Origin: Patescibacteria group bacterium
GTDB lineage: Bacteria; Patescibacteriota; Minisyncoccia; Phycocordibacterales; UBA918
Assembly (NCBI GenBank): GCA_040386275.1
Contig: JAZKFU010000009.1
Span: 22,367 to 86,366 of the forward strand
DNA: 64,000 nucleotides
Direction: 5' to 3'
In this document: positions 6,088 to 62,349 of the stretch, piece by piece
Layout of the letters: each line of letters opens with the position of its first letter
How positions within the stretch are numbered: position 1 is the first letter of the stretch
Translations under genes and position numbers: made by a program
Notes under the pieces: model-generated
Database searches by the model: none
Told to the model about the DNA's origin: nothing
The model's input: the letters and a program-made list of their open reading frames with translations, nothing else

Positions 6088-6471
6088 ATGAAAGATTTTA
6101 TTGACGAATTCAAGGCGTTTGCGATGAAGGGAAATGTGATTGATCTCGCCGTGGCGGTGGTGATTGGAGCAGCCTTTGGAAAAATCGTAGCCTCACTTGT
6201 AGAAAATATCATTATGCCTACCATTGGTATATTGATGGGTGGTGTTGATTTTACCAACTGGTCACTACAGGTAGGGGAGGCAAATATTACCTACGGTGTG
6301 TTTATTCAAAGTATTTTTGACTTTACCATCATAGCCTTTGTTATCTTTATGGTGATGCGGGCTATTTCGCGCTTTAAAAAGAAGGAGGCGGTGTTGCCAA
6401 CGGTGACTCCCGAGCCGTCAGATGAGGTAAAGTTACTCATTGAGATTCGCGATAGTTTACGGCGGAATTAA
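6088..6471 (+). CDS. mscL: large-conductance mechanosensitive channel MscL
   Basis: [34 protein letters not shown]...IMPTIG signature, two TM helices and a charged C-terminus. Confidence 0.9.
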
Positions 6472-6489
6472 AGGTATACATAAAACTAA

Positions 6490-6516
6490 TGAGGCGACCA
6501 ATGTCGCCTCATTTTA
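6490..6516. terminator. bidirectional intrinsic terminator (mscL and the convergent 67-aa gene)
   Basis: tgaggcgac caat gtcgcctca tttta. Confidence 0.7.
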
Positions 6517-6521
6517 ATTGT

Positions 6522-6725
6522 CTAGGAAGCAACTGTCGGCACGTTCAGCTCATACCGACTGACCCCGTGCTCATCTTCCCAGAAGGCAAGGCGTGTTTCA
6601 AGGGGTTGAGTGCCTTGCCCTCGCTTTAGGTGGTAGTGATAGAGTTGTTTATCCGCCTCACACCAGATGCCAAAACTACCGTCGGTGAACACTTGAGTTA
6701 CCATACCTGACTTACTTTTATTCAT
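6522..6725 (-). CDS. hypothetical 67-aa protein, GC-rich
   Basis: Strong GGAGG RBS 8 nt upstream; shares a terminator with mscL. Confidence 0.45.
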   Translation of the reverse strand: MNKSKSGMVTQVFTDGSFGIWCEADKQLYHYHLKRGQGTQPLETRLAFWEDEHGVSRYELNVPTVAS

Positions 6726-7101
6726 ACTACTTTCCTCCGGCTCTGTACTATCGTTACAGTATATAAGTTGCTCATGAGTGTCAATAAATGCATTAGATAT
6801 TTCTCCCGGTCTTCACAAATGCTAAAACAATTTTAGAGTATGAAAGACCTGATTAGTTATCCCCATTCTTGTGCACTGTACTCAGGTAGCGGTCCTTACT
6901 TTAAGCCATATCTCCGTGCCGTAGCCGTTTTTTACATTTACTGCAAAACCCCTTATTATAGGTGTATCACCGCGTCTCCACCGCGATGTGTGTCGGAGGA
7001 CAAGACACGCAGCGTTATGTTTTTAAAACATACCCTGAGCCCAGTCACATAAACTGGGCAGTCTTTACCTCACCTTGTAGTCGCGCACATTATTTATTAA
7101 A

Positions 7102-8433
7102 ATGAAAGATACTACGACTATGGAAATTAAACACATTAAAAAGCGTGATGGATCACTACAGTCCTTCGATATTGTAAAAATCGAACACGCTATTTTAATG
7201 GCACTGAAAGAAACCAATGAAGGTGTTGAAGCTGACGCGAGTAAAGTGGCCACTCGAGTTCATCAAAACGCTGTTTCTATGTGTGTCCAAGCGGGCACCG
7301 CTACTGCAGAGGACCCGCAGTCCCAAAAATGTATCAACGGTTACCCAACGGTAGAAGAAATCCAGGACTTGGTGGAGGCGTCACTCATGGAATTGGGGTA
7401 TTTTGAAACGGCCAAAGCGTACATCATCTACCGAAACGAGCGCAAGAAAATGCGTGAACCGGATATTTTCCGCAAGCGACCCTACCTCAAGCCGTACGAG
7501 TACCCTGAACTCTATGAGTACGTTGATGCAGTACGACATTCATACTGGGTGCACACGGAATTTAACTTTACCGGTGACGTCCAAAATTTCCATGTGAACG
7601 TTAACGATGTTGAGCGTAGTGCTATTAAAAACACCATGCTTGCCATCGCGCAAATTGAAGTGGCGGTGAAAAGTTTCTGGGGAGATATTTACAAAAAAAT
7701 GCCTAAGGCAGAGATTGGGGCAGTGGGAGCGACTTTTGCTGAATCTGAAGTTCGTCACACTGACGCCTACTCACACTTGCTTGAAATTTTAGGTCTCAAC
7801 AATGAGTTCACTAAAATTAAAAATATCCCAGTCATTCAGTCACGAATGAATTATTTGGAGAAAGTAAGTGAGCTCTCAAAAACGAGTGAAAATAAAGAGT
7901 ACGCTCAAGCGGTTATGTTGTTCTCGTTGTTTGTGGAGCACGTCTCTTTGTTCTCACAGTTTTTGATTATGATGTCCTTCAATAAACATAAGAATTTATT
8001 TAAGGGAATCAGTAACGCCGTGGAGGCTACTTCAAAAGAAGAAAACCTGCACGGTATGTTTGGGATTGATGTGATTAACATCATTAAAAAAGAACATCCA
8101 GAGTGGTTTGACGCCGAAGCAAAAAATAAGATTATGACTGCTTGCGAAGAGGCGTTTGAAGCAGAAAGTAAGGTGATTGACTGGATTTTTGAAGCGGGGG
8201 AACTTGATTTCTTGCCCGCCAGTAACGTGAAGGAGTTTGTGAAGCATCGCTTTAACAATTCGCTTGCATCCATTGGTATGGAACGATTGTTTGATGTAAA
8301 TCCGGTGTTGCTTGAGGAAACTGATTGGTTTGATAATGAAGTTATTGCTACCAAGCACGTAGACTTCTTTGACAAACGATCAATTAACTACAACAAACGA
8401 TCGGCGAGCGTGACGAGTGAAGATTTGTTTTAA
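7102..8433 (+). CDS. nrdB: class I ribonucleotide reductase small (radical-generating) subunit NrdB with an N-terminal ATP-cone
   Basis: N-terminal IKRDGS..F...KI..AI ATP-cone; R2 iron ligands and the radical Tyr (ESEVRHTDAYSH, EENLHG). Confidence 0.85.
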   Translation: MKDTTTMEIKHIKKRDGSLQSFDIVKIEHAILMALKETNEGVEADASKVATRVHQNAVSMCVQAGTATAEDPQSQKCINGYPTVEEIQDLVEASLMELGYFETAKAYIIYRNERKKMREPDIFRKRPYLKPYEYPELYEYVDAVRHSYWVHTEFNFTGDVQNFHVNVNDVERSAIKNTMLAIAQIEVAVKSFWGDIYKKMPKAEIGAVGATFAESEVRHTDAYSHLLEILGLNNEFTKIKNIPVIQSRMNYLEKVSELSKTSENKEYAQAVMLFSLFVEHVSLFSQFLIMMSFNKHKNLFKGISNAVEATSKEENLHGMFGIDVINIIKKEHPEWFDAEAKNKIMTACEEAFEAESKVIDWIFEAGELDFLPASNVKEFVKHRFNNSLASIGMERLFDVNPVLLEETDWFDNEVIATKHVDFFDKRSINYNKRSASVTSEDLF

Positions 8434-8483
8434 CATGAGTAGAGTGTCGCACTCTTTATTATTCCGCATTAAGCATTGATTGT

Positions 8484-10184
8484 ATGGCTACAGAAAATAA
8501 ACCGTGGGACTGGGTAAATGATAATACACGCGCTTTTATGGCTCGTGGGTATTTGGTGGAAGGGCAGACAACCGAAGAACGCGTGCGGGCCATTGCAGAA
8601 TTTGCTGAAAGCATTCTCGGCCAAAAAGGCTTTGCGGAAAAATTTGAAAAATACATGAGTCTCGGGTGGATTTCACTTGCGACACCAGTGTGGGCCAACT
8701 TTGGACTTAAGCGGGGACTGCCGATTAGTTGCTTTGGTTCGTTTGTCGGAGATGATATGGCCAACATTTTGCATACGCAAAGTGAAGTAGGCATGATGAG
8801 TAAATACGGTGGTGGGTGTTCAGCGTACTTTGGCGCGTTGCGTCCTCGTGGAGCAGAGATTACCCAAAATGGCTACTCATCAGGGCCGGTGCATTTTATG
8901 CAGTTGTTTGAAAAGATTCTTGATGTCGTCAGTCAAGGAGCAACTCGTCGCGGCGTGTTTGCTGCGTACTTGCCGGTAGAACATCCAGATATTAATGAAT
9001 TCCTTGATATTGGTGCCGAAGGGAATCCAATTCAGAAAATCAATCACGCGGTTACGGTAACAGATGCCTGGATGCAAGCGATGATTGATGGCGATGAAGA
9101 GAAGCGAAAAGTGTGGGCTAAAATCATTCAACGTCGTGGTGAAATTGGGTATCCGTATATCATGTTTATTGATAACGCCAATAACGCTCGCCCACAGGTA
9201 TACAAAGACAAAGAACTACCAATTTACGCCAGTAACGTGTGTAGTGAAATCATGCTTCCGAGTAACAAAGAGTGGTCATTTGTGTGTTGTCTCTCATCAA
9301 TTAACCTCTTGCACTACGATGAGTGGAAAGACACTGACCTTGTTGAAACGATGACCTACTTCCTTGAAGCAGTCATGACAGACTTTGTGAATAAGCTCGA
9401 AGCGATGCGTGATTCCGAAGAAGAGGAAAAGCGTCTGGCGTTTAAATTTATGGAGCGACCATACAATTTTGCGAAAGCTAACCGAGCGCTCGGATTAGGG
9501 GTGCTTGGGTACCACTCGTTGTTACAAAGTAAGGGTCTGGCGTTTGAAAGTGATGAAGCCATAGCAATTAACAACGAAGTCTTTAAGTTAATGCAAGAAC
9601 GCTCATTTAAAGCGTCTGAAGCCATGGCCAAGGAATTTGGTGAACCAGAAGTACTCAAAGGCTACGGACGCCGTCACACGACGACTATGGCTATTGCGCC
9701 AACGACATCATCGGCCTTTATCTTGGGTCAGGTATCACAAGGTATCGAACCAATCTGGAGTAACTGCTACATCAAAGACGTAGCCAAGATGAAAGTCGTT
9801 ATCAAAAACCCGATGCTCATTACCTTGCTCGCTGAGAAGGGGAAGGACACTAAAGAAGTGTGGGACAGTATCCGCGACGCCGACGGATCAGTACAGCACC
9901 TAGATTTCTTAAGTGATGATGAAAAAGCGGTCTTCCGAACTTTCGCCGAAATTGATCAAAATAAAATCATTGAACAAGCTGCTGAACGACAAAAGTTTAT
10001 CGACCAAGGCCAGTCGCTCAACGTGATGGTAGCGCCCGATACACCAGTAAAAGACATCAACCGTCTCTACCTCCAAGCCTGGAAGCAAGGCTGTAAAGCG
10101 CTTTACTATCAACACAGTATGAATGCCGCGCAACAGCTTACTCGAAAGAAGATTGCGGAACGGAATGCTGTAAAAGGGGAGTAA
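8484..10184 (+). CDS. nrdA: class I ribonucleotide reductase catalytic subunit NrdA, short form lacking an ATP-cone
   Basis: Active-site motif SNVCSEIMLP (N-x-C-x-E); the 566-aa protein starts directly in the catalytic barrel. Confidence 0.85.
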   Translation: MATENKPWDWVNDNTRAFMARGYLVEGQTTEERVRAIAEFAESILGQKGFAEKFEKYMSLGWISLATPVWANFGLKRGLPISCFGSFVGDDMANILHTQSEVGMMSKYGGGCSAYFGALRPRGAEITQNGYSSGPVHFMQLFEKILDVVSQGATRRGVFAAYLPVEHPDINEFLDIGAEGNPIQKINHAVTVTDAWMQAMIDGDEEKRKVWAKIIQRRGEIGYPYIMFIDNANNARPQVYKDKELPIYASNVCSEIMLPSNKEWSFVCCLSSINLLHYDEWKDTDLVETMTYFLEAVMTDFVNKLEAMRDSEEEEKRLAFKFMERPYNFAKANRALGLGVLGYHSLLQSKGLAFESDEAIAINNEVFKLMQERSFKASEAMAKEFGEPEVLKGYGRRHTTTMAIAPTTSSAFILGQVSQGIEPIWSNCYIKDVAKMKVVIKNPMLITLLAEKGKDTKEVWDSIRDADGSVQHLDFLSDDEKAVFRTFAEIDQNKIIEQAAERQKFIDQGQSLNVMVAPDTPVKDINRLYLQAWKQGCKALYYQHSMNAAQQLTRKKIAERNAVKGE

Positions 10185-10203: not shown

Positions 10204-10232
10204 AAGAGTCCCGGTAACACCGGGCTCTTTTT
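10204..10232 (+). terminator. intrinsic terminator after nrdA
   Basis: gagtcccgg taaca ccgggctc tttttt. Confidence 0.7.
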
Positions 10233-10325
10233 TAAAAAAAGGTATTTTGACGAGTTACCCCCAAACCCCTGGTGATATGTGACTTTAGTCGCGGGGGTGG
10301 TCATGTATGATAGAGGTAAGAGAAA

Positions 10326-28295: not shown

Positions 28296-31200
28296 ATGAA
28301 TAAACAACATGGTCGGGAAAATGACTCAGTGGCCGTTGTGCCTGAGACCGAAAAAAGTGACGTAGCAACTCGTGAAGAATTGATGCAAGCATTTTGGCTT
28401 GAGCACGATATTTTTAATAAAAGTCTGGCTACTCCAGCTGGGGATACGCCCAAAGGTAGCTACACCTTTTATGACGGTCCACCGTTTGCGACGGGCACTC
28501 CTCACTACGGGCATATTTTAGCCAGTACCATCAAAGATGCGGTGCCCCGATTTTGGACCATGAACGGTATGCGGGTAGACCGAAAGTGGGGCTGGGATTG
28601 TCATGGACTACCACTAGAGAATTTAATTGAAAAGAAACTCGGACTGGCTACTAAACGGGATATTGAAGAGTACGGCGTAAAGAATTTTAACGAAGCTGCT
28701 CGTGGTGCGGTGATGGAATATGCTGACTACTGGAAAATGGCCATTCCCCGCATGGGACGATGGGCCGACATGGAGGACGATTACAAAACCATGGACAATA
28801 CCTACACCGAAAGTGTGTGGTGGGTTTTTTCTGAATTACATAAAAAAGGATTAGTGTTTGAAGGCTTTAAAACTATGCATCTCTGTCCACGCTGTGGGAC
28901 TACGTTGAGTAATTTTGAAGTGAATCAAGGCTATAAAGATATTAAAGATATTGCCGTTACGGTTAAGTTACCGTTACTTGATGATGCTGGTAACGTTACC
29001 GATACCTCACTGTTGGTCTGGACCACGACTCCGTGGACGTTGCCGGGGAATATGGCTGCTGCTGTTCACAATGATATTCAGTATGCAAAAGTAAAAGTAA
29101 CCACAGAAACCGGAGCTGAGTTTTTTATTCTCGCTAAAGAGCGCTTGTCACAATTAGGAGATGTATCCTATATGATAGAGGAAGAACTGAAAGGATCGAC
29201 ACTGGTCGGACGTTCCTACCAGTCACCATTTACTTTTTGGCAAAACCAAGATTTTGACAAAACCAATGCCTGGAAAATTTGGCACGCGGACTATGTCGAA
29301 GTCGGGACTGAAGGCACCGGGGCAGTGCATATCGCGCCAGCGTATGGAGATGATGATATGCAGTTAGCCAAAGCCAACAACGTGCCAATCATGCACCACG
29401 TTGATACGGCCGGGCACTTTATGCCGTTGGTGACAGAATTCGCGGGACGGTTGGTAAAACCAAAAGATGACGATGCTTCGGGGATTGATCACAAAGATAC
29501 TGATATTGAAATATTAAAGTCTTTGCAAACCGCAGGCAAAATTTTCAAAAAAGAAAACATCACTCACAGCTATCCGCACTGTTGGCGCTGTGATACACCG
29601 TTACTTAACTACGCGACCACCTCGTGGTTTGTGAATGTGCCGGCAATTAAAGATGCGCTTGTAGCAAATAACGCTCAAGTACACTGGGTGCCAGAGCATG
29701 TGGGCACTAATCGCTTTGGAAAATGGCTTGAAGGAGCGAGAGATTGGGCTGTCTCGCGACAGCGGTATTGGGGAGCACCCTTGCCAATTTGGAAAAATCC
29801 TAAAACCGGTGAGTACAAAGTTTTTGGTTCGCTCGCCGAGTTGCAACAGTATATTCCGCAAACCAATAACACCTTCTTTGTGATGCGTCATGCGCAAGCG
29901 CACAGTAATCTGGGCGATGCCGTAATTGATGCGATTCCGGATGAAGAAAATCCGTTAACTGATACCGGTCGCGAGCAATGTAAAGTAGCCGCCGAGCAAT
30001 TGAAAGACGCGGGCATTACTCGCATTGTGCACTCAGGGATGCAGCGCACGCGCGAGACGGCGCTCGCTGTGGCGGCTGAGCTTGGGTTACCAGAATCAGC
30101 GGTGACGGTAGATACTCGCATTACCGAATTACAAACTGGTAACGCCTTTGAAGGGAAAACCTGGGCAGAGTACAACGCCAACTACGCGAGTGAAGAAGAA
30201 AAGTTCACCAAAGTAATTCCCGGGGTAGAAAACCGCTACGACCTTATTAAACGGGCGGGAGCATTCTTGTATGACTTTAATGCGAGTCATCAAAATGAAA
30301 CTGTCTTAGTAGTGGCGCACGCCAGTTCAACGTTTGCGTTACGGTGCGTCGCTGAAGGCGCCGATCATACCCGTGTCATTGAACTTAAAAAGGAAGGGTA
30401 CTTTGGTAATGCTGAAGTCCGTCCGTTACCGTTTACTCCGGTACCGCATAATGATAATTACGCACTTGATTACCACCGGCCGTACATTGATGAGATTGAG
30501 CTTATTGATACTGACGGTACTAAGCTTGTGCGCGTGCCCGATGTATTTGACTGTTGGTTTGAAAGTGGTTCAATGCCGTATGCGCAACATCATTTCCTCG
30601 GGGAAGGACGAGCAGACTTTGAGGGAACAAAATTCCCGGCGCAGTTTATTGCTGAAGGTCTTGATCAGACGCGCGGGTGGTTCTATTCACTGATTGTGTT
30701 AGGCACAGCCTTATTTGGAAAATCACCGTTTGAGAATGTAATAGTAAACGGGTTAGTGCTCGCGGAAGATGGAAAAAAGATGTCTAAATCTCTCAAGAAC
30801 TATCCTGACCCAATGGAGTTAGTTGATCGTGTAGGAGCGGATGCTATTCGATACTACATGCTCACCTCACCATTGATGAAAGGGGAAGATCTAAACTTTT
30901 CGGAAAAAGAAGCACTTGAGTTACAACGAAAAAATATCGGCCGGTTGCATAACGTGCTTGCTATGTACGAGATGTTTGCCGACGGCACTAAAGCCAATGC
31001 AAGTTCCGACAACATACTTGATCGTTGGATTATTACCCGACTTAATCAAATCATTTCTGAAGCCACTGCCGGATACAAAACCTACGAACTAGATAAAGCC
31101 AACCGACCAATTGCTGATTTTATTGATGATGTATCGGTCTGGTATCTTCGCAGAAGTCGAGAACGCTTAAAGGCCGATGATGAAGCTGACAAAGCTTTAC

Positions 31201-31847
31201 CCATTGGAACACTCCGCTATATCTTGCGCGAACTTGCAAAAGTCATGGCTCCCGCTATGCCATTTTATGCTGAGTATTTATATCGTGCAGTAAAAGATGA
31301 GGGAGAAGCAGAAAGTGTACACCTAACTGCTTGGCCACAAGGTGGAGAAGTAAGTACTGATCTTATCGAGAAAATGAAAGAGGTACGTATGTTTGTGACG
31401 GCTGGTCTTGAAGCTCGCACCAAAGCCAATATCAAAGTTCGCCAACCATTGTCAGAATTATTTATTCGCACAACGATGCTTCCGGATACTGAGCTACTCG
31501 ATTTAATTAAAGATGAGCTCAATGTAAAGGAGGTGAGTCTCGACGGAGTTGGGGAAGACAACAGTCCCCGCATTAAACTCATGACTGACCTCAGTCCCGA
31601 GTTGCTCGCCGAAGGAGCCGTCCGGGAAGTTATGCGGGCTGTTCAAGATATGCGTAAAGATGCCGGCCTAGAACCAAGTGACCGTATCACGCTCACGATT
31701 GATACCGACGAAAAAGGCCAGCAAGCTATTGCTGTACATCAAGACATGCTCCTCAAAACCGTCGGAGCAACAGATGTTGTATTTGAAGTAACTTTTGGAA
31801 CGAGTGTCACGAGTGGTAACTATAGTTTTATTTGTTCAATTTCGTAA
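28296..31847 (+). CDS. ileS: isoleucyl-tRNA synthetase, eukaryote-like type 2, carrying an inserted histidine-phosphatase (PGM-like) domain
   Basis: YDGPPFATGTPHYGHIL (type-2 HIGH), WTTTPWTLPGN, RDWAVSRQRYWGAPLPIW and KMSKSLKN; residues 526-712 (nt 29871-30431) carry VMRHAQAHSN, SGMQRTRETA, ELQTGNAFEGKTW and LVVAHASS, the histidine phosphatase superfamily motifs. Confidence 0.9.
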   Translation: MNKQHGRENDSVAVVPETEKSDVATREELMQAFWLEHDIFNKSLATPAGDTPKGSYTFYDGPPFATGTPHYGHILASTIKDAVPRFWTMNGMRVDRKWGWDCHGLPLENLIEKKLGLATKRDIEEYGVKNFNEAARGAVMEYADYWKMAIPRMGRWADMEDDYKTMDNTYTESVWWVFSELHKKGLVFEGFKTMHLCPRCGTTLSNFEVNQGYKDIKDIAVTVKLPLLDDAGNVTDTSLLVWTTTPWTLPGNMAAAVHNDIQYAKVKVTTETGAEFFILAKERLSQLGDVSYMIEEELKGSTLVGRSYQSPFTFWQNQDFDKTNAWKIWHADYVEVGTEGTGAVHIAPAYGDDDMQLAKANNVPIMHHVDTAGHFMPLVTEFAGRLVKPKDDDASGIDHKDTDIEILKSLQTAGKIFKKENITHSYPHCWRCDTPLLNYATTSWFVNVPAIKDALVANNAQVHWVPEHVGTNRFGKWLEGARDWAVSRQRYWGAPLPIWKNPKTGEYKVFGSLAELQQYIPQTNNTFFVMRHAQAHSNLGDAVIDAIPDEENPLTDTGREQCKVAAEQLKDAGITRIVHSGMQRTRETALAVAAELGLPESAVTVDTRITELQTGNAFEGKTWAEYNANYASEEEKFTKVIPGVENRYDLIKRAGAFLYDFNASHQNETVLVVAHASSTFALRCVAEGADHTRVIELKKEGYFGNAEVRPLPFTPVPHNDNYALDYHRPYIDEIELIDTDGTKLVRVPDVFDCWFESGSMPYAQHHFLGEGRADFEGTKFPAQFIAEGLDQTRGWFYSLIVLGTALFGKSPFENVIVNGLVLAEDGKKMSKSLKNYPDPMELVDRVGADAIRYYMLTSPLMKGEDLNFSEKEALELQRKNIGRLHNVLAMYEMFADGTKANASSDNILDRWIITRLNQIISEATAGYKTYELDKANRPIADFIDDVSVWYLRRSRERLKADDEADKALPIGTLRYILRELAKVMAPAMPFYAEYLYRAVKDEGEAESVHLTAWPQGGEVSTDLIEKMKEVRMFVTAGLEARTKANIKVRQPLSELFIRTTMLPDTELLDLIKDELNVKEVSLDGVGEDNSPRIKLMTDLSPELLAEGAVREVMRAVQDMRKDAGLEPSDRITLTIDTDEKGQQAIAVHQDMLLKTVGATDVVFEVTFGTSVTSGNYSFICSIS

Positions 31848-53316: not shown

Positions 53317-55881
53317 ATGAAGAAATATCTCTTCACAACACGAGCCCTTCATATTTTCTCATATTTCTCCGTTCCTTTGTTTTTATTTGGACTCACATTC
53401 ATTGTGAGCTTTTTTATACCGTTTGAATCAGTGCAGGCAAAAGTTCTATTTGAACAAAGTAAAACGGGAACCGCGTATGATATTTTTAAAGCTGAAGGGC
53501 ATAATACTGCTTTAGCACAAAGGTTACCTCAATACAGTGGCACACCGCCGGTATTGAATTCAAGCGGAACAATATCATATCGAGGTACTGCAGAGTGGGT
53601 GAGATTAAAAAGAATTTCTGGCGTAGAGTGCGACACACGCGTCTGGCTCACTCTGAGTGAACCCGATGGTGTAACTCGTATTGGCGATGATGTTTTATAC
53701 GGCAGACAAAATGGTGAATTCTGTGATTTTAAAATCACTGGTCCAAATCGAACAGATGGGAAAGTTGGCATTATACACATTTGTTATAACGGTCAATGTA
53801 GTTTTTCTGACAATTTTATCTTGGATGGTTCAAGAGAGAATGAAGGGTATGTATCTGACGGTTATTACAACTCTCCTGAATCAGGAGGTTGGGCGTTTCA
53901 AATATGCGACATAGACGGCTGTGAAGGCGGGTTTGAACCCGTAGCGACTACCACAGCCACCAGCACCGGCGCCAGTAGCGTACTGTTCTTGCCAGGTATT
54001 CAAGCCAGCCGGTTGTATACGGATGGTGGTTCAGGTACTGAGGATCAAATATGGGTGCCAAATATTGATGCCGATGTTGAAAAGCTCAGGATGACATCAT
54101 CGGGGTTGAGTTTAAATGACATTTACACTAGAGATGTTTTAGACGAACTAGCGTTACCTTATGCGGGTATTAACGTATATAAGGGGTTCATGAGTCTTAT
54201 GGATGAATTAAAGGAGACAGAAGTAATAAAAGACTGGGAGCCTTTTGCGTATGATTGGCGATACGATGTAGAGGAAATAGCAAAAAATGGAACAAAATAT
54301 CAAAATGAAGTAAAAAGTCTCGTTGCAGAAGTGGAGCGACTCGCCTCAAGTTCTTATTCTGGTAAAGTAACTATCATAGGACATTCTAATGGGGGATTGG
54401 TAGGAAAGATGCTTATTTCAGAGTTAGAACGTCAAGGGCAGGAGGAATTAGTGGATAAGCTGGTTATGATTGGAACCCCGCAATTAGGCGCCCCTAAAGC
54501 AGCTTTGGTAATGCTCCATGGGTATGATCAAAAAGCAGTATTTGGATTAGTAGTAAATGATACTACTGCAAGAGATGTGATGAAAAATTTACCGGGCACT
54601 TATGGTTTATTGCCCTCAAATGAATATTTTATAAAAAGTGGTGACACTCTAATTTCTTCTGATAATTCAGTTACAACTGCAAGTATTGGAGCGTATGGAC
54701 CAATTAATTCATATACTTCGATGAACTACTTACTTACGGATTCATTAAATAACCGAAATGACGAGGTGCCAATTAATGAGCCTAGCACCTTAAATAATAA
54801 TCTTTTGCAATATTCTATTAGCTTAAAACAAAACCTCGATTCTTGGTTACCTCCAGATAATGTAGAAATATATGAAGTTGTAGGGACGGGCAATCCCACA
54901 ATTAGAGGTGTGCAATATCAAAGTTTCCCATGCAGGCTAGGTTTTCTTACCTGCGAGACAGGAAGTTATATGAAAGCCGTACCTATTTTTACAAGTAGTG
55001 GTGATGAGACTGTACCAATTGTTTCAGCATCGGGACAAGATGGAAATAAAGTGACAGGGATAATAGATTTAATTGCAGAAGCGCCAAACACCTTAATACG
55101 ACCCTATAAACATATGAATCTTACCGAAAGTCCAACCGTACAATCTTTTATTGAATCAATCGTTAAGTTTCCATATTTGAGTCAGACTTTAGAAATACCA
55201 GAATATGCAAATGTGGCACGCAATTTTAAAATCATTGGAGTACATTCGCCTGTCTCATTAGTGATTACAGATAGTTTGGGTGAAAAAGTCGGCAAAATTG
55301 GAAATGAAGTAAAAGAAGAAATTGTTGGTTCTCAATATCTTGATTTAGGGGATAGCTCCTATGTAATTATCCCAGACGATATTTTATTTGAAGCAGAGAT
55401 TAAGGGACAAGCAACAGGTACATATTCAATTACAGTTGATACTTTAAAAAATCATAATCAAACACAAACATTCCGATATATTGGCGCTAGTTCTACTCCA
55501 GAAATGAAGGCTGCTTTTAGCTTTGCCACTTCAGGATACACAAACATTAAGACAGATATTAATAATGATGGTCTAACAGATTTAGAGCAGACTTTAAACG
55601 GACAAGTTATTTTACCTCCAGCTTTATACTCTTATCCGCTTTTGAAAACTAACATAAAAGCTTTAAAGTTATCAAAAGTATTAGAAACCGTACTTTTAGT
55701 ACAAGTTGATGCGGCTTTGTATTGGGATACGCTCACTCCTGCAAAACCAGCTTATCAGAAACCAGAATTTGCAGCACTAGATACACTTAAGGCTACGTTG
55801 TTAGTTTATAAACAGAAAAAATATATTACACCAATGCAGTACAGTGCTTTAGAAATAATAGTTTATAATTTAAGAAAATAA
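53317..55881 (+). CDS. secreted alpha/beta-hydrolase (LCAT/PGAP1-like lipase/esterase domain) protein
   Basis: Signal/TM; GHSNGG nucleophile elbow in VTIIGHSNGGLVGKML; a large C-terminal extension. Confidence 0.55.
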   Translation: MKKYLFTTRALHIFSYFSVPLFLFGLTFIVSFFIPFESVQAKVLFEQSKTGTAYDIFKAEGHNTALAQRLPQYSGTPPVLNSSGTISYRGTAEWVRLKRISGVECDTRVWLTLSEPDGVTRIGDDVLYGRQNGEFCDFKITGPNRTDGKVGIIHICYNGQCSFSDNFILDGSRENEGYVSDGYYNSPESGGWAFQICDIDGCEGGFEPVATTTATSTGASSVLFLPGIQASRLYTDGGSGTEDQIWVPNIDADVEKLRMTSSGLSLNDIYTRDVLDELALPYAGINVYKGFMSLMDELKETEVIKDWEPFAYDWRYDVEEIAKNGTKYQNEVKSLVAEVERLASSSYSGKVTIIGHSNGGLVGKMLISELERQGQEELVDKLVMIGTPQLGAPKAALVMLHGYDQKAVFGLVVNDTTARDVMKNLPGTYGLLPSNEYFIKSGDTLISSDNSVTTASIGAYGPINSYTSMNYLLTDSLNNRNDEVPINEPSTLNNNLLQYSISLKQNLDSWLPPDNVEIYEVVGTGNPTIRGVQYQSFPCRLGFLTCETGSYMKAVPIFTSSGDETVPIVSASGQDGNKVTGIIDLIAEAPNTLIRPYKHMNLTESPTVQSFIESIVKFPYLSQTLEIPEYANVARNFKIIGVHSPVSLVITDSLGEKVGKIGNEVKEEIVGSQYLDLGDSSYVIIPDDILFEAEIKGQATGTYSITVDTLKNHNQTQTFRYIGASSTPEMKAAFSFATSGYTNIKTDINNDGLTDLEQTLNGQVILPPALYSYPLLKTNIKALKLSKVLETVLLVQVDAALYWDTLTPAKPAYQKPEFAALDTLKATLLVYKQKKYITPMQYSALEIIVYNLRK

Positions 55882-55883
55882 AT

Positions 55884-56276
55884 ATGCGCTTAATAACAAA
55901 TAAAAAATTCTTTTTAAGTTCAGTATTACTCGTTCTGTGTCTTTTTGTATACGATTATTTAGTTATAGAATCTATATCAGATAGTATAAAAAAATATTAT
56001 TATGAAGAGTATTTACGAATATTATTATATTTTTCAATTTCGGTAGCCGTTTCTTCAGGAGTTTTAATTTTCTTCAATAACGTGATTTTTGAAAAATGGT
56101 TAAAAAAAATCATTAGTTGGTATTTGCCTTTTGCAGCTATAATAACTTCAACAGGTAGTGAAGGTTCGTTTATTAATCCAGGAAAAGACGATCTCGCATT
56201 GTTTTTTAGTTGGCTACTATTGGGAGTAACATTACTTTTTATTCTCGTTCAAAAGTTTTATTTTAAGGTTAAATAA
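55884..56276 (+). CDS. hypothetical membrane protein (very AT-rich)
   Basis: 130-aa ORF with 3-4 TM helices. Confidence 0.4.
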   Translation: MRLITNKKFFLSSVLLVLCLFVYDYLVIESISDSIKKYYYEEYLRILLYFSISVAVSSGVLIFFNNVIFEKWLKKIISWYLPFAAIITSTGSEGSFINPGKDDLALFFSWLLLGVTLLFILVQKFYFKVK

Positions 56277-58920: not shown

Positions 58921-61900
58921 ATGACAGAAAAATTAACAGAAATAGTCGCTTTATTACAAATATTACTTTCGCTTGTGATGACGCAAGGTCAGACACTAGC
59001 TACCAATAATAATAACGGTGCTCTTTTAGGATCTACTTCAGTTGTGACTGCGACGACTACTGCGTGGACCCAAATTGCCAAAGAAGGTCAAAGGTTCACT
59101 GTTTCAGGCACACAAACGGTCCGGTATGGATATGGAACGTCATGGGTCCAAAAAACAGTGACTAATTCAGGTACTTGCTCTAATCGTTTTTTTGGAAAGG
59201 ATCCGATTGTAAATCAAGTAAAGGTGTGTCAGGTTTCTTCTACAGTTACCCCGTCAACTCCCACACCAGTAACTATCGCCACTCCGTTTAAGATTGGTGA
59301 CCGGGTGAGTATGACCGCAAACGTTAATGTTCGAACATCAGGTCTAATTTCAGCCACTACACTTATTGGTGTTAATCCACTTGGGAGTGTGGGAACGCTT
59401 ATTGCTGGTCCCACCCGATCTGCTGACGGCCTTGTTTGGTTTAACGTCAACTTCGACGCTGGCTTTGATGGGTGGGTTGGTTCAAATAACTACCGTTTAG
59501 TTACTACCTCGGTCACTCCGTTACCAACCCCAGCACCAACGCCAACCTTCACCACCACCGTCTCTGGTCTCACAGCTACTGCAGCTTTCACGTTAAGTAA
59601 TGGGTGTGAAGGGTACACCATCCTCTGGGGTGACGGTACTCAATCAGCTAAAGCAGCTTCACCATCGGGCAGTTCGTGTACCATGGCGATTGTAAATGTG
59701 TCCCAAGTCCATGCCTATGCTACCGCGGGAACCTATACGGTCACCGTTCAACGGTACAGTAGTGGTACGACTTTAAAAGATACCAGTACCCGAACGGTTA
59801 CTGTTGCTGGCTCAACTCCAGCCCCAACTCCATTGCCCGTAACTATCAACACTCCTTTTAAAATTAATGACCGGGTGAGTATGACCGCAAACGTTAACGT
59901 GCGCTCTACTGGGCTGGTATCTGCAACTACATTACTTGGAGTTAATCCTCTAGGAAGTATGGGAACCCTCGTGGCAGGTCCAACCCAATCTGCTGACGGT
60001 CTCATTTGGTTTAACGTGAATTTTGACACTGGCTTTGATGGTTGGGTGGGAGCAAATAACTACCGTTTAGTTACTACCGTTACTCCATTGCCGTCTCCAA
60101 CACCAACGCCAATTCCTGTACCAGCGCCAACACTTGTTGTGAACGCTAACCCTACGAGCGTTACTACTGGTAACACTGCTGTAATTTCTTGGTCAAGTAC
60201 TAACGCCACCGCGTGTACAGCGAGCGGCGCCTGGAGCGGTTCTCGAGCGGTGACTGGTTCATTCACGACGAGTGCTCTTAATACCACGGGCACCCAAACA
60301 TACTCCATGACCTGTACCGGTTCAGGCGGCAGTGTGACCCGTTCTGGTAGTGTGGCAGTAACCGCGGCGGCAACAGTAACTCCAACCCCAGCTCCAACTA
60401 CGCCAACAGTATTTGGTCCGCGAACCCCAAGTCCACTTTCGGTACGACAAATCCACAGTGGCCACAGCCTCACCGACGGCGGTACGTTCCAAGGTACCTA
60501 CCCGGGGCACTTCCGGAATATGATTAATAGTATCCAAGCCAATAGTGCCAATGTCGCTCAAAGTACCATTCCGGGTTCTCCGCTCCATTGGCGCTGGAAC
60601 AACGTACCGGGCTATGGTCAGCCTGATGCCCGCGGTGATATCGGTAACTATCAGTTACTTGTTATTACCGAAGGCGTGCCATTCATCTTCTCTGCCTCCA
60701 ACCCCGAGTGGACCCTTGAACACCGCACCTGGCTGCGCACCTGGGCCGAACACGCCTGGCGCAACGGTAATGGCGGCGCGGGTGCACCAACCATCTTATA
60801 CGCCACCTGGACCAACATCGATGATGCGGACGGACCGTTCCGCCAAAACCTCGATACCTACCAACCTATCTGGGAGGATATGGCTGACTACGCGTCTGCT
60901 AACCTACCTGCTCAAGCCAAGGTATACATTATTCCGGCGAACCTTTTAATGAAACGCTTCTACGATGACATTCAAGCCGGACGAGTACCGGGTATCAATA
61001 ACATTAGTGGTTTCTTCTCTGATGCCATTCACCCTAATGGCTTAGGAAGTTACGCGGTAGCGCTTCAACACCTTCTCGTGATTCACCACATTGACCCGCG
61101 CGGACTGCGGTCCACTGGTTTTGGCTTAAGTCCTGAACCTTCAGCGGCTCTGGCTAAGTACATTCAAGATACCGTGTGGGATGTGACGACGAAGTATCCA
61201 CGTAGTGGGGTGACGGCGGGGAATACAACCACCTCAACGCAAACCCCAAGTACAGTTCCAACCCCAACCCTGTCTCTGAGTGCTAACCCAACCAGTCTTA
61301 CCGCTGGTAACGCCGCTACACTGAACTGGTCAAGTACCAACGCCACCGCATGTTCTGCTGGTGGTGCATGGAGTGGATCGCGGGCGGTAAACGGTTCATT
61401 TACTACGGGTGCACTTAGTACTGTGGGTACACAAATTTTCAACCTTACGTGTACGGGAAGTGGAGGAAGTGTGAGTCGTTCTGCAAGTGTGGGTGTGACA
61501 GCGTCTACAGTAACCTCTGCGCCTACCGTTACCTCGTGTACGGTACCAACCCTGACCTTTAATCCGGCTGACTTCGACCGCGTGATTGATGGCACAGAAA
61601 TCACCAGTACATTGACCCTGGATGGATCTGCTTGGAATAATACGCTGATTAGAAATTGTCGCGTGCGTAACACCGCTGGGGATGGAATTCTTCTCCGTAA
61701 TGTGAGCAACGTGGTAATTACCGGTTGTACGTTTGAAAATATGGGCGGAAATGCGGCGGTCCGAGGGAGTTCAAGTGGCGGGACGTCAAACGTGACGCTT
61801 TATAGAAATACTGTGAATGGAACTGCTTCAAACGGTTTCCATTTTGCAGAACGAATTGCTTCGGGAGTGGATCACGTAAACTTGCGTATTATTGGCAATA

Positions 61901-62349
61901 CACTCAGTAATACGGGTCGAGCTTCGTCAGATGGTTCAACCCACGCTTTGTATATCCAAGCGCATGATTCTCTGATTACCCATAACACTATTAATGGTTC
62001 GCGCAATGGAAACGGTATCTCCGTTCGCAGTTCAGGGGAAGTGTCGTGTAATACCGTATCAGGCACTTCATCAAATGGTAAGCCAGGTATTCGCTATTAC
62101 TCAGACCATAATACTGGTTTGACCAATACCCTTATTATCAATAGAAATACCGTAAGCGGAGCAACTGAAGGAATAAATATCTATCAACCAGTCGTCAGGT
62201 ATGATGGCCAGACTGGATTAGATCACGTGGTGAAAAACTTTGTGATTACCAACAACGATGTCCGGAATAACACCAATGGTATTGGTATTGCCAGTCAGTA
62301 CAATCAATCACCGTTTACCGTGACGCAGTCAGGAAATATGACTAATTAA
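58921..62349 (+). CDS. large secreted multidomain surface protein (two SH3-like repeats, two Ig/PKD-like repeats, a central hydrolase-like domain, and a C-terminal right-handed parallel beta-helix)
   Basis: Start set at MTEKLTEIVALLQILLSLV after the terminator; internal direct DNA repeats 59281-59507/59851-60077 and 60143-60366/61280-61505; beta-helix repeats NCRVRNTAGDGILLRNVSNVVITGC... Confidence 0.55.
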   Translation: MTEKLTEIVALLQILLSLVMTQGQTLATNNNNGALLGSTSVVTATTTAWTQIAKEGQRFTVSGTQTVRYGYGTSWVQKTVTNSGTCSNRFFGKDPIVNQVKVCQVSSTVTPSTPTPVTIATPFKIGDRVSMTANVNVRTSGLISATTLIGVNPLGSVGTLIAGPTRSADGLVWFNVNFDAGFDGWVGSNNYRLVTTSVTPLPTPAPTPTFTTTVSGLTATAAFTLSNGCEGYTILWGDGTQSAKAASPSGSSCTMAIVNVSQVHAYATAGTYTVTVQRYSSGTTLKDTSTRTVTVAGSTPAPTPLPVTINTPFKINDRVSMTANVNVRSTGLVSATTLLGVNPLGSMGTLVAGPTQSADGLIWFNVNFDTGFDGWVGANNYRLVTTVTPLPSPTPTPIPVPAPTLVVNANPTSVTTGNTAVISWSSTNATACTASGAWSGSRAVTGSFTTSALNTTGTQTYSMTCTGSGGSVTRSGSVAVTAAATVTPTPAPTTPTVFGPRTPSPLSVRQIHSGHSLTDGGTFQGTYPGHFRNMINSIQANSANVAQSTIPGSPLHWRWNNVPGYGQPDARGDIGNYQLLVITEGVPFIFSASNPEWTLEHRTWLRTWAEHAWRNGNGGAGAPTILYATWTNIDDADGPFRQNLDTYQPIWEDMADYASANLPAQAKVYIIPANLLMKRFYDDIQAGRVPGINNISGFFSDAIHPNGLGSYAVALQHLLVIHHIDPRGLRSTGFGLSPEPSAALAKYIQDTVWDVTTKYPRSGVTAGNTTTSTQTPSTVPTPTLSLSANPTSLTAGNAATLNWSSTNATACSAGGAWSGSRAVNGSFTTGALSTVGTQIFNLTCTGSGGSVSRSASVGVTASTVTSAPTVTSCTVPTLTFNPADFDRVIDGTEITSTLTLDGSAWNNTLIRNCRVRNTAGDGILLRNVSNVVITGCTFENMGGNAAVRGSSSGGTSNVTLYRNTVNGTASNGFHFAERIASGVDHVNLRIIGNTLSNTGRASSDGSTHALYIQAHDSLITHNTINGSRNGNGISVRSSGEVSCNTVSGTSSNGKPGIRYYSDHNTGLTNTLIINRNTVSGATEGINIYQPVVRYDGQTGLDHVVKNFVITNNDVRNNTNGIGIASQYNQSPFTVTQSGNMTN

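Follow-up and report, generated by a model that had tools for sequence, protein, structure and literature searches.

The adjacent nrdB and nrdA genes in a 64,000-nucleotide (nt) stretch of contig JAZKFU010000009.1 (the window, meaning that whole stretch) form one nrdB-nrdA operon, and the ribonucleotide reductase (RNR) that they encode is assigned from its sequence to class Id, subclass NrdAi/NrdBi. The window is part of a Patescibacteria (Kaiserbacteria-like) chromosome, and we consider it very likely that this chromosomal operon specifies an enzyme with a dATP switch on NrdB like that of Leeuwenhoekiella blandensis. A sequence-only reading of the window had proposed a Leeuwenhoekiella-like RNR of the NrdBi type, with the ATP-cone on the radical-generating subunit, and this is borne out by a full-length match to the L. 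blandensis NrdB structure 5OLK in which the metal ligands are kept. That reading is partly supported as a whole, being right in essence and wrong on the cofactor chemistry, on the rarity of the system and on the significance of the gene order. As stated, the finding is the correct identification of a known system, that is, another member, from a new phylum, of a mechanism described in 2018. What looks new is the loss of the NrdA tail cysteines together with a cysteine-bracketed insertion in the cone, and, 5′ of nrdB, a covarying leader RNA without an Rfam match and a conserved DnaA box.

Both open reading frames (ORFs) of the sequence-only reading, an nrdB of 443 amino acids (aa) and a cone-less nrdA of 566 aa, are present as described, and so are the strings that it quoted (IKHIKKRDGSLQSFDIVKIEHAI at NrdB residues 9–31 and RHTDAYSH at residues 218–225). 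NrdB residues are numbered here in the 443-aa frame, which starts at 7102; the ATG at 7120 is probably the real start, because nearly all of the best homologues (118 of 120) are 437 aa long with a MEIK.. start. A profile search with Pfam placed an ATP-cone (PF03477) on NrdB residues 11–116 (E = 3.5e-20; 72.8 bits, the cut-off being 25.8), followed by an R2 core (PF00268, Ribonuc_red_sm) on residues 128–399 (E = 3.5e-58), both with scores well past anything that chance would give. The Pfam domains of NrdA are the RNR all-alpha and barrel domains only, with no PF03477. A longer NrdA N-terminus concealing a cone was ruled out, as an in-frame stop lies 15 codons 5′ of the ATG with no alternative start between them, so that no correction of the start codon gives NrdA a cone; among 81 relatives from the first locus sets, the frame stays open 5′ of the equivalent nrdA start for at most 29 codons. 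NrdA scores 762.6 bits against the NCBIfam model TIGR02510 (NrdE-prime, the short NrdA; cut-off 602.25) over residues 5–556, and among solved structures it is closest to 6DQX and 6DQW, both alpha subunits of class Id (E = 1e-211 to 6DQX). Residues C83, N251, C253, E255 and C268 and the Y541/Y542 dyad are present, and all active-site cysteines are invariant. Since the cone sits on the radical-generating subunit and NrdA has none, control of overall activity would be exerted through NrdB.

NrdB residues 5–443 align with 5OLK (E = 4.3e-167), and the core can be aligned as well to the L. blandensis structure from which the cone was deleted and to class Id-type core chains, 6CWO among them. Core residues are 67% and cone residues 41% identical to those of L. 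blandensis NrdB. Ligand equivalences were taken from the L. blandensis residues given in PMC6754362 and PMC5794259, which list Glu170, Glu200, His203, Glu263, Glu298 and His301 as Mn ligands and, in the second sphere, the inward Lys174, Trp177 and a Tyr207 hydrogen-bonded to Thr294. The corresponding ligand positions in the window, E186, E216, H219, E279, E314 and H317, are invariant in 76/76 sequences, and so are the second-sphere residues K190, W193, Y223 and T310 (equivalent to Lys174, Trp177, Tyr207 and Thr294, respectively). In characterised homologues the class Id site holds Mn2(IV,III) as the oxidant, and no tyrosyl radical was seen in the Facklamia ignava enzyme (PMC6754362); in L. blandensis the tyrosine lies about 6–7.6 Å from the metal (PMC5794259, PMC6754362). 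Because its core is so close to that of L. blandensis NrdB, we infer that the cofactor of the window's NrdB is Mn2(IV,III), presumably activated by superoxide, in place of a tyrosyl radical with iron. Hence the terms "iron ligands" and "radical Tyr" in the sequence-only reading are misnomers for a class Id site made of E186, K190, W193 and Y223 with T310. The class Ia-like diiron-tyrosyl enzyme that this reading assumed would agree with Y223, a tyrosine that follows His219 by four residues and occupies the canonical place of the radical. Such an enzyme is nevertheless extremely unlikely, given that the first metal ligand is Glu186 and not the Asp of class Ia, that Lys190, a hallmark of class Id, is present, as is Thr310, which partners Tyr223, and that the class Ia NrdB model NF006576 (PRK09101) gives 20.2 bits against a cut-off of 346, which places the protein outside that family; the core identity to L. 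blandensis, the distance of the homologue's tyrosine from the metal and the missing radical in F. ignava argue in the same direction.

The residues that build the β4 interface of L. blandensis NrdB (Asp73, residue 76, Met80, Lys89, Ile92, Ile93 and Arg95; PMC5794259) have conserved equivalents in D89, E92, M96, K105, I108, I109 and R111, each column holding in at least 68 of 76 sequences. Within the cone, K14, R15, D16, F22 and K26 show no variation in 59 clusters and 13 divergent sequences, nor do the helices VEExQDxVE and AKxYIxYR, and the KRDG hairpin is unchanged even in the most divergent members. As the interface, the hairpin and the cone helices are all conserved, a switch of the L. blandensis type is the best-supported mechanism. 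In that enzyme, ATP goes with a NrdB dimer and an active α2β2 complex, while two dATP per cone lead to β4 and to blocked α2β4 or α4β4 complexes (PMC5794259, PMC8350387). With ATP, the window's NrdB would likewise be dimeric and form an active α2β2 complex. dATP would bind the cone, probably as two molecules per cone, and would join two NrdB dimers into a β4 tetramer through the cone helices α3/α4; NrdA would still bind this tetramer, giving α2β4 or α4β4, in which the cones would sterically prevent the asymmetric complex that radical transfer requires. The dimanganese core would, by homology, store the oxidising equivalent as Mn2(IV,III). The C-terminal tail of NrdB (pLDDT, the predicted local distance difference test score, below 50 for residues 405–437 of the model) would be the peptide that binds NrdA, and Tyr430 would lie on the path of radical transfer, because such is the arrangement in class I RNRs in general.

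Several points weigh against a simple transfer of the L. blandensis mechanism to this enzyme. Residue 76 of L. blandensis NrdB is Glu in the numbering used here, and the text of the paper has Asp. The AlphaFold2 model of NrdB, made from a shallow alignment, reaches only moderate confidence as a whole (mean pLDDT 71.7). A 13-residue insertion sits in the cone immediately ahead of α3, and since α3 contributes to the nucleotide pocket as well as to the tetramer interface, the nucleotide response could differ. Finally, without a C-terminal cysteine pair on NrdA, the turnover cycle cannot be identical to that of an L. blandensis-type enzyme. A more radical alternative is that the cone is a decayed or neutral remnant that exerts no overall regulation of activity, as might be imagined in a subclass whose members are mostly cone-less, for a domain that is interrupted by an insertion and only 41% identical to the L. 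blandensis cone. We hold this to be very unlikely in view of a score far above the Pfam cut-off, of the invariant cone residues and helices, of the conserved interface, and of a domain length that is constant across hundreds of genomes.

The NrdA subunit ends in ..YYQHSMNAAQQLTRKKIAERNAVKGE, with zero cysteines after the tyrosine dyad, at a position where relatives outside the clade that shares the cone insertion (the insertion clade) carry C-x-x-C-E-[GA]. A C-terminal redox cysteine pair has been described as universal in class I NrdA (PMC6187632), and a CXXC was counted in 1737/2022 class I sequences (PMC9531940). The pair is missing in 87/90 relatives within the clade and present in 101/102 operons outside it. 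The insertion amounts to 13 residues relative to L. blandensis and is bracketed by Cys61 and Cys77, both of which occur in 90/90 insertion-clade NrdBs; the NrdBs of L. blandensis, of the Flavobacteria type, of phages and of viral contigs do not have this pair. A divergent member (locus L148) keeps both cysteines in a shorter loop, C-x10-C. In the AlphaFold2 model, the insertion is predicted to be ordered, as an extension of α2 followed by short helices (pLDDT 82–90). When insertion and tail were tabulated over 126 complete operons and 66 viral ones, the insertion with both cysteines went with a NrdA tail lacking the pair in 87 operons (one of them with a single Cys) and with a retained ..ICRACE(G) tail in 3. 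Operons without a Cys-pair insertion had a CxxC tail in 35 cases (one as Cx4C) and a single Cys in 1, and all 66 viral operons combined the lack of an insertion with a CxxC tail.

A neighbour-joining tree was built from 937 columns, leaving out the insertion and the tail, with 200 bootstraps. At least five tail-less clades appeared in all 200 bootstraps, one of them a single outlier outside the insertion clade. A single ancestral loss of the tail was rejected, as this topology occurred in 0/200 bootstraps and the tail-keepers L061, L083 and L087 were never monophyletic. A sister lineage (L078, L121 and L125) has an insertion of similar length that ends in GC[DK]GYC (C-x3-C) and keeps the NrdA CxxC tail; it may represent an intermediate state. 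Our reading is that the NrdA tail became dispensable after the cone had gained its cysteine pair.

Other sources of a cysteine pair were considered and rejected. A pair supplied by another frame or a frameshift was found as C-x2-4-C in only 8/86 tail-less genes, which were close relatives or carried unrelated motifs; in the window, the alternative frame at the nrdA 3′ end reads ..EDCGTECC... Two NrdA cysteines failed as clade-specific replacements, since Cys428 is also found in 19 tail-bearing NrdAs without the cone insertion and only 77% of the clade has Cys112. A tblastn search of the window with E. coli NrdR, TrxA, NrdH, Grx1 and TrxB queries returned nothing significant, and no redoxin gene was syntenic with the operon in the clade loci compared.

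These observations bear on a rival in which the cone has been repurposed as a redox module, instead of or besides acting as a dATP switch, either as a shuttle that replaces the NrdA CxxC or as a disulfide or metal switch. The fixation of both cysteines throughout the insertion clade, including the C-x10-C variant, their association with tail-less NrdA partners, the repeated loss of the tail and the sister lineage that already has a cysteine pair while still keeping the tail are all consistent with it, and the Grx-cone-NrdB fusion of Facklamia ignava offers a precedent for a redox add-on at the NrdB N-terminus (PMC6187632). Against it, the co-occurrence lies within one clade, so that common descent inflates the counts; an ordered structure is predicted for the insertion, unlike flexible shuttle tails; C-x15-C does not have the form of a redoxin motif; the cone residues that bind nucleotide or build the interface are invariant, so that the dATP switch is probably retained; and free thioredoxin could reduce the active site directly. 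We judge a repurposed cone to be unlikely, and grant no more to the proposal that the cone cysteines directly replace the function of the NrdA tail. If they do, one cone domain would couple dATP sensing to redox turnover.

The L. blandensis-like architecture, a cone-bearing NrdB encoded ahead of a short NrdA, is widespread. Searching GTDB with one genome per species gave 254 matching stretches, and the best 80 of the 254 came almost entirely from metagenome-assembled genomes of Patescibacteria (labelled Kaiserbacteria, Nomurabacteria, Paceibacteria or Parcubacteria); one 3.3-kb contig was 100% identical, and several Kaiserbacteria were 94–97% identical. At least 585 relatives were confirmed in a metagenome scan and at least 581 in a viral (IMG/VR) scan, and 70 GenBank phage records had full-length matches. 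The protein database held at least 8000 matches at E ≤ 1e-20, with cone and core together in 120/120 of the best clusters, and at 50% clustering at least 9 further representatives matched from the cone to the C-terminus. The 2018 paper had already listed 93 cone-bearing NrdBi proteins in RefSeq, which came from viruses and several phyla (PMC5794259). The earlier claim that a NrdB-borne cone is limited to a small set of bacteria does not survive these counts; it is common, not exotic, and is standard in Patescibacteria and many phages. Many NrdB representatives of 550–1000 aa (P0122–P0153 and others; L081, 7915–9251) match in two stretches, which suggests inteins or other insertions.

The inverted gene order noted by the sequence-only reading is real, and its description as uncommon is not upheld. 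Wherever both genes lay on the contig, nrdB preceded nrdA (227/227, comprising 151/151 cellular or metagenomic and 76/76 viral loci), and the annotated phages Romulus and Lietuvens have the same order. The link has also been published: Burnim et al. (2022) found beta-borne cones almost only in beta-alpha operons and 70/104 NrdAi operons in beta-alpha order (PMC9669993). Phage Romulus additionally carries homing endonucleases and a second alpha-subunit fragment beside its RNR genes. The nrdB-nrdA spacer ranges from 16 to 303 nt in relatives, and in the window its small hairpin with the T-rich run could act as a partial terminator that sets the β:α ratio.

Upstream of the operon lie genes for YibE/F and MscL, and downstream are those for an M10 peptidase and a SIMPL protein; the order YibE/F-mscL-nrdB-nrdA-metalloprotease-SIMPL is common to 48–82 of 89 clade loci. 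Since cone-NrdB with a short NrdA is frequent in phages, the operon might be phage-derived cargo, carried by a prophage or brought in by recent horizontal transfer, and not the host's own RNR. This origin is exceedingly improbable: the viral copies are 53–61% identical and lack the insertion, the mscL and YibE/F synteny is kept in up to 82 of the 89 clade loci, the operon has the same guanine-plus-cytosine (GC) content as its surroundings, no phage genes lie nearby, and the leader RNA of the operon (see below) has matches in 0 of 82 viral loci searched. A resident chromosomal operon is thus the origin that we retain.

Elsewhere, the window encodes aminoacyl-tRNA synthetases, FtsK and HtrA. A class I aminoacyl-tRNA synthetase (IleRS/ValRS-like, 1183 aa, 28296–31847) contains a PF00300 insert, a histidine-phosphatase domain at residues 528–694 between the two halves of the catalytic domain. 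Relative to the window mean of about 0.44, GC content is 0.354 at 54001–56000, in an LCAT-like 888-aa gene, and 0.517 at 60001–62000, where a 1192-aa beta-helix protein is encoded.

Almost every clade locus has a long mscL-nrdB spacer (median ~450 nt); that of the window measures 648 nt, its extra length being explained by a 67-aa ORF on the reverse strand (6522–6725). This ORF was rejected as a conserved gene, having no Pfam family and not being conserved in relatives. A perfect TTATCCACA occurs within 450 nt 5′ of nrdB in 75/152 loci, against a shuffle expectation of 0.3% per locus, and a DnaA box with at most one mismatch occurs in 119/152, against 12.8% expected; most of these boxes are on the forward strand, 250–360 nt before the nrdB start codon. 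In E. coli, nrdAB is known to be controlled by DnaA (PMC8203912). Both hexamers of the putative σ70-like promoter are conserved in close relatives, and from its sequence we infer that nrdBA transcription starts there. The transcript would probably run from this promoter, 3′ of the conserved DnaA box, through a structured leader RNA. No NrdR gene was found in the 64-kb window.

The leader folds into a hairpin and a long stem that closes a three-way junction, and an unfitted MAFFT/RNAalifold analysis of 10 sequences returned the same structure with 8 compensatory pairs. A covariance model, built at first from 10 close relatives and rebuilt from 19, gave 67 matches, all on the forward strand 5′ of nrdB and confined to the insertion clade (Patescibacteria loci); the element was also absent from Flavobacteria-type loci. 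Among 61 distinct leader sequences, 39 of 42 pairs showed compensatory change, and 86.9% of the leader cells were paired, compared to 63% in shuffles and 31–51% in slid-partner controls, in an alignment of the 61 sequences that was fitted to the model. A known riboswitch was rejected by both Rfam gathering and E-value scans: with Rfam 15, only two tRNAs exceed the gathering score in the window, and the best hits on 6460–7140 have E ≥ 1 and lie outside or across the element. A leader peptide in the 5′ untranslated region was likewise rejected, the ATG at 7017 not being conserved (ACG in L093 and L050).

The invariant leader core GUGUCGGAGGUAAGACAC could alternatively form a local hairpin, and its GGAGG can pair either with the conserved UCUCC loop upstream or with the CCUC downstream, an arrangement suggestive of a switch. 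Because the distance from the leader to the start codon varies from 25 to ~480 nt among loci, direct masking of the ribosome-binding site is unlikely to be a general mechanism. One subclade (L006, L007, L009, L089, L091 and L102) has a second conserved leader segment, ACCACCACAGATTGTGTTTGGATGAGA, which lies about 60–110 nt 5′ of nrdB, between the structured element and the start codon, and does not occur in the window. It is possible, though on balance rather doubtful, that the cone Cys pair has taken over from the NrdA shuttle, delivering or gating reductant, and that, separately, the operon is governed by the structured leader, which might sense a metabolite or a protein. The features of the operon and of its upstream region are listed in Table 1.

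Table 1. Coordinates of the RNR operon and associated elements in the window.
Feature	Position	Strand	Remarks
DnaA-box-like 9-mer TTATCCCCA	6857–6865	+	one mismatch from TTATCCACA; ~70 nt 5′ of the −35 hexamer
Putative σ70-like promoter for nrdBA	6931–6959	+	TTTACA-17 nt-TATTAT; consensus match 10/12, best in region
Structured 5′ leader RNA	6966–7095	+	130 nt
Leader H1	6971–6974/6982–6985	+	loop UCUCCAC
Leader P1	6986–6995/7082–7090	+	
Leader P1b	6996–7000/7067–7071	+	GGAGG:CCUC
Leader P1c	7002–7006/7061–7065	+	
Leader hairpins P2 and P3	7010–7037, 7039–7059	+	
nrdB (NrdBi, class Id beta subunit by assignment)	7120–8433	+	437 aa from the conserved start; longest ORF 7102–8433, 443 aa
ATP-cone domain of NrdB	7132–7449	+	residues 11–116, PF03477
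Clade-specific insertion MCVQAGTATAEDPQSQKCINGY	7279–7344	+	α2-α3 loop of the ATP-cone; NrdB residues 60–81
R2 metal-binding core, class Id ligands	7483–8298	+	PF00268
Disordered NrdB C-terminal tail	8299–8430	+	ends ..SINYNKRSASVTSEDLF; aligned to the L. blandensis tail
nrdB-nrdA spacer	8434–8483	+	50 nt; small hairpin 8441–8455, then T-rich run
nrdA (NrdAi, class Id alpha subunit by assignment)	8484–10184	+	566 aa, ATP-cone-less
Cys-less NrdA C-terminal tail QHSMNAAQQLTRKKIAERNAVKGE	10110–10181	+	residues 543–566
Intrinsic-terminator-like hairpin CCCGGTAACACCGGG and T-run	10210–10234	+	operon end

For a class I RNR without the NrdA cysteine pair, one has to ask by what means the active-site disulfide is reduced again in bacteria with reduced genomes, and Cys61 and Cys77 of the cone insertion are a candidate route, as far as sequence data go. 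The leader RNA would add a new element to the cis-regulation of deoxynucleotide synthesis. Together, the tail loss, the cone insertion and the leader RNA set the Patescibacteria version apart from the known L. blandensis-type family.

Compared with other RNRs, the Facklamia ignava Grx-ATP-cone-NrdB (PMC6187632) belongs to the same NrdBi subclass and also has cysteines in the N-terminal part of NrdB. Its cone gives dATP-induced NrdB tetramers, its nrdA lies 46 nt 3′ of nrdB and its N-terminal cysteines are redox-active; there, a full glutaredoxin domain (CPWC) precedes the cone, whereas the NrdB of the window has no redoxin fold. The class Id enzymes from Flavobacterium johnsoniae and from Actinobacillus ureae (6CWO, 6DQW, 6DQX) share the minimal NrdAi and the dimanganese NrdBi core, although their solved NrdB chains are core-length (~344 aa) and appear cone-less, hence without the switch. 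The NrdA cone of Pseudomonas aeruginosa binds two dATP and pairs through α3/α4, as in the NrdB-cone family (PMC5794259), and these helices are conserved here; in that enzyme, however, it is the catalytic subunit that bears the cone, and the oligomer without activity is an α4 ring, not β4. A DnaA box 5′ of the RNR promoter is shared with E. coli nrdAB (PMC8203912), the window differing in having one evident putative box that lies farther upstream. Phage operons (Staphylococcus phage Romulus, Sporosarcina phage Lietuvens and those of IMG/VR) agree in architecture, gene order and 53–61% identity, and differ in having no cone insertion, a NrdA CxxC (66/66) and no leader RNA. The closest counterpart is the L. 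blandensis NrdAi/NrdBi (5OLK, 6SF4; PMC5794259, PMC6754362, PMC8350387), with a cone on NrdB, a cone-less NrdA, the nrdB-nrdA order, and all of the Mn ligands, Lys174, Trp177, Tyr207, Thr294 and the β4 interface residues kept. Unlike it, the window's cone has a 13-residue insertion between two cysteines, its NrdA is 566 aa long compared to about 596 and, unlike Flavobacteria-type NrdAs (..KKDC[VA]SCEA), lacks the C-terminal CxxC, and its operon belongs to a Patescibacteria host and is preceded by a structured leader RNA before nrdB.

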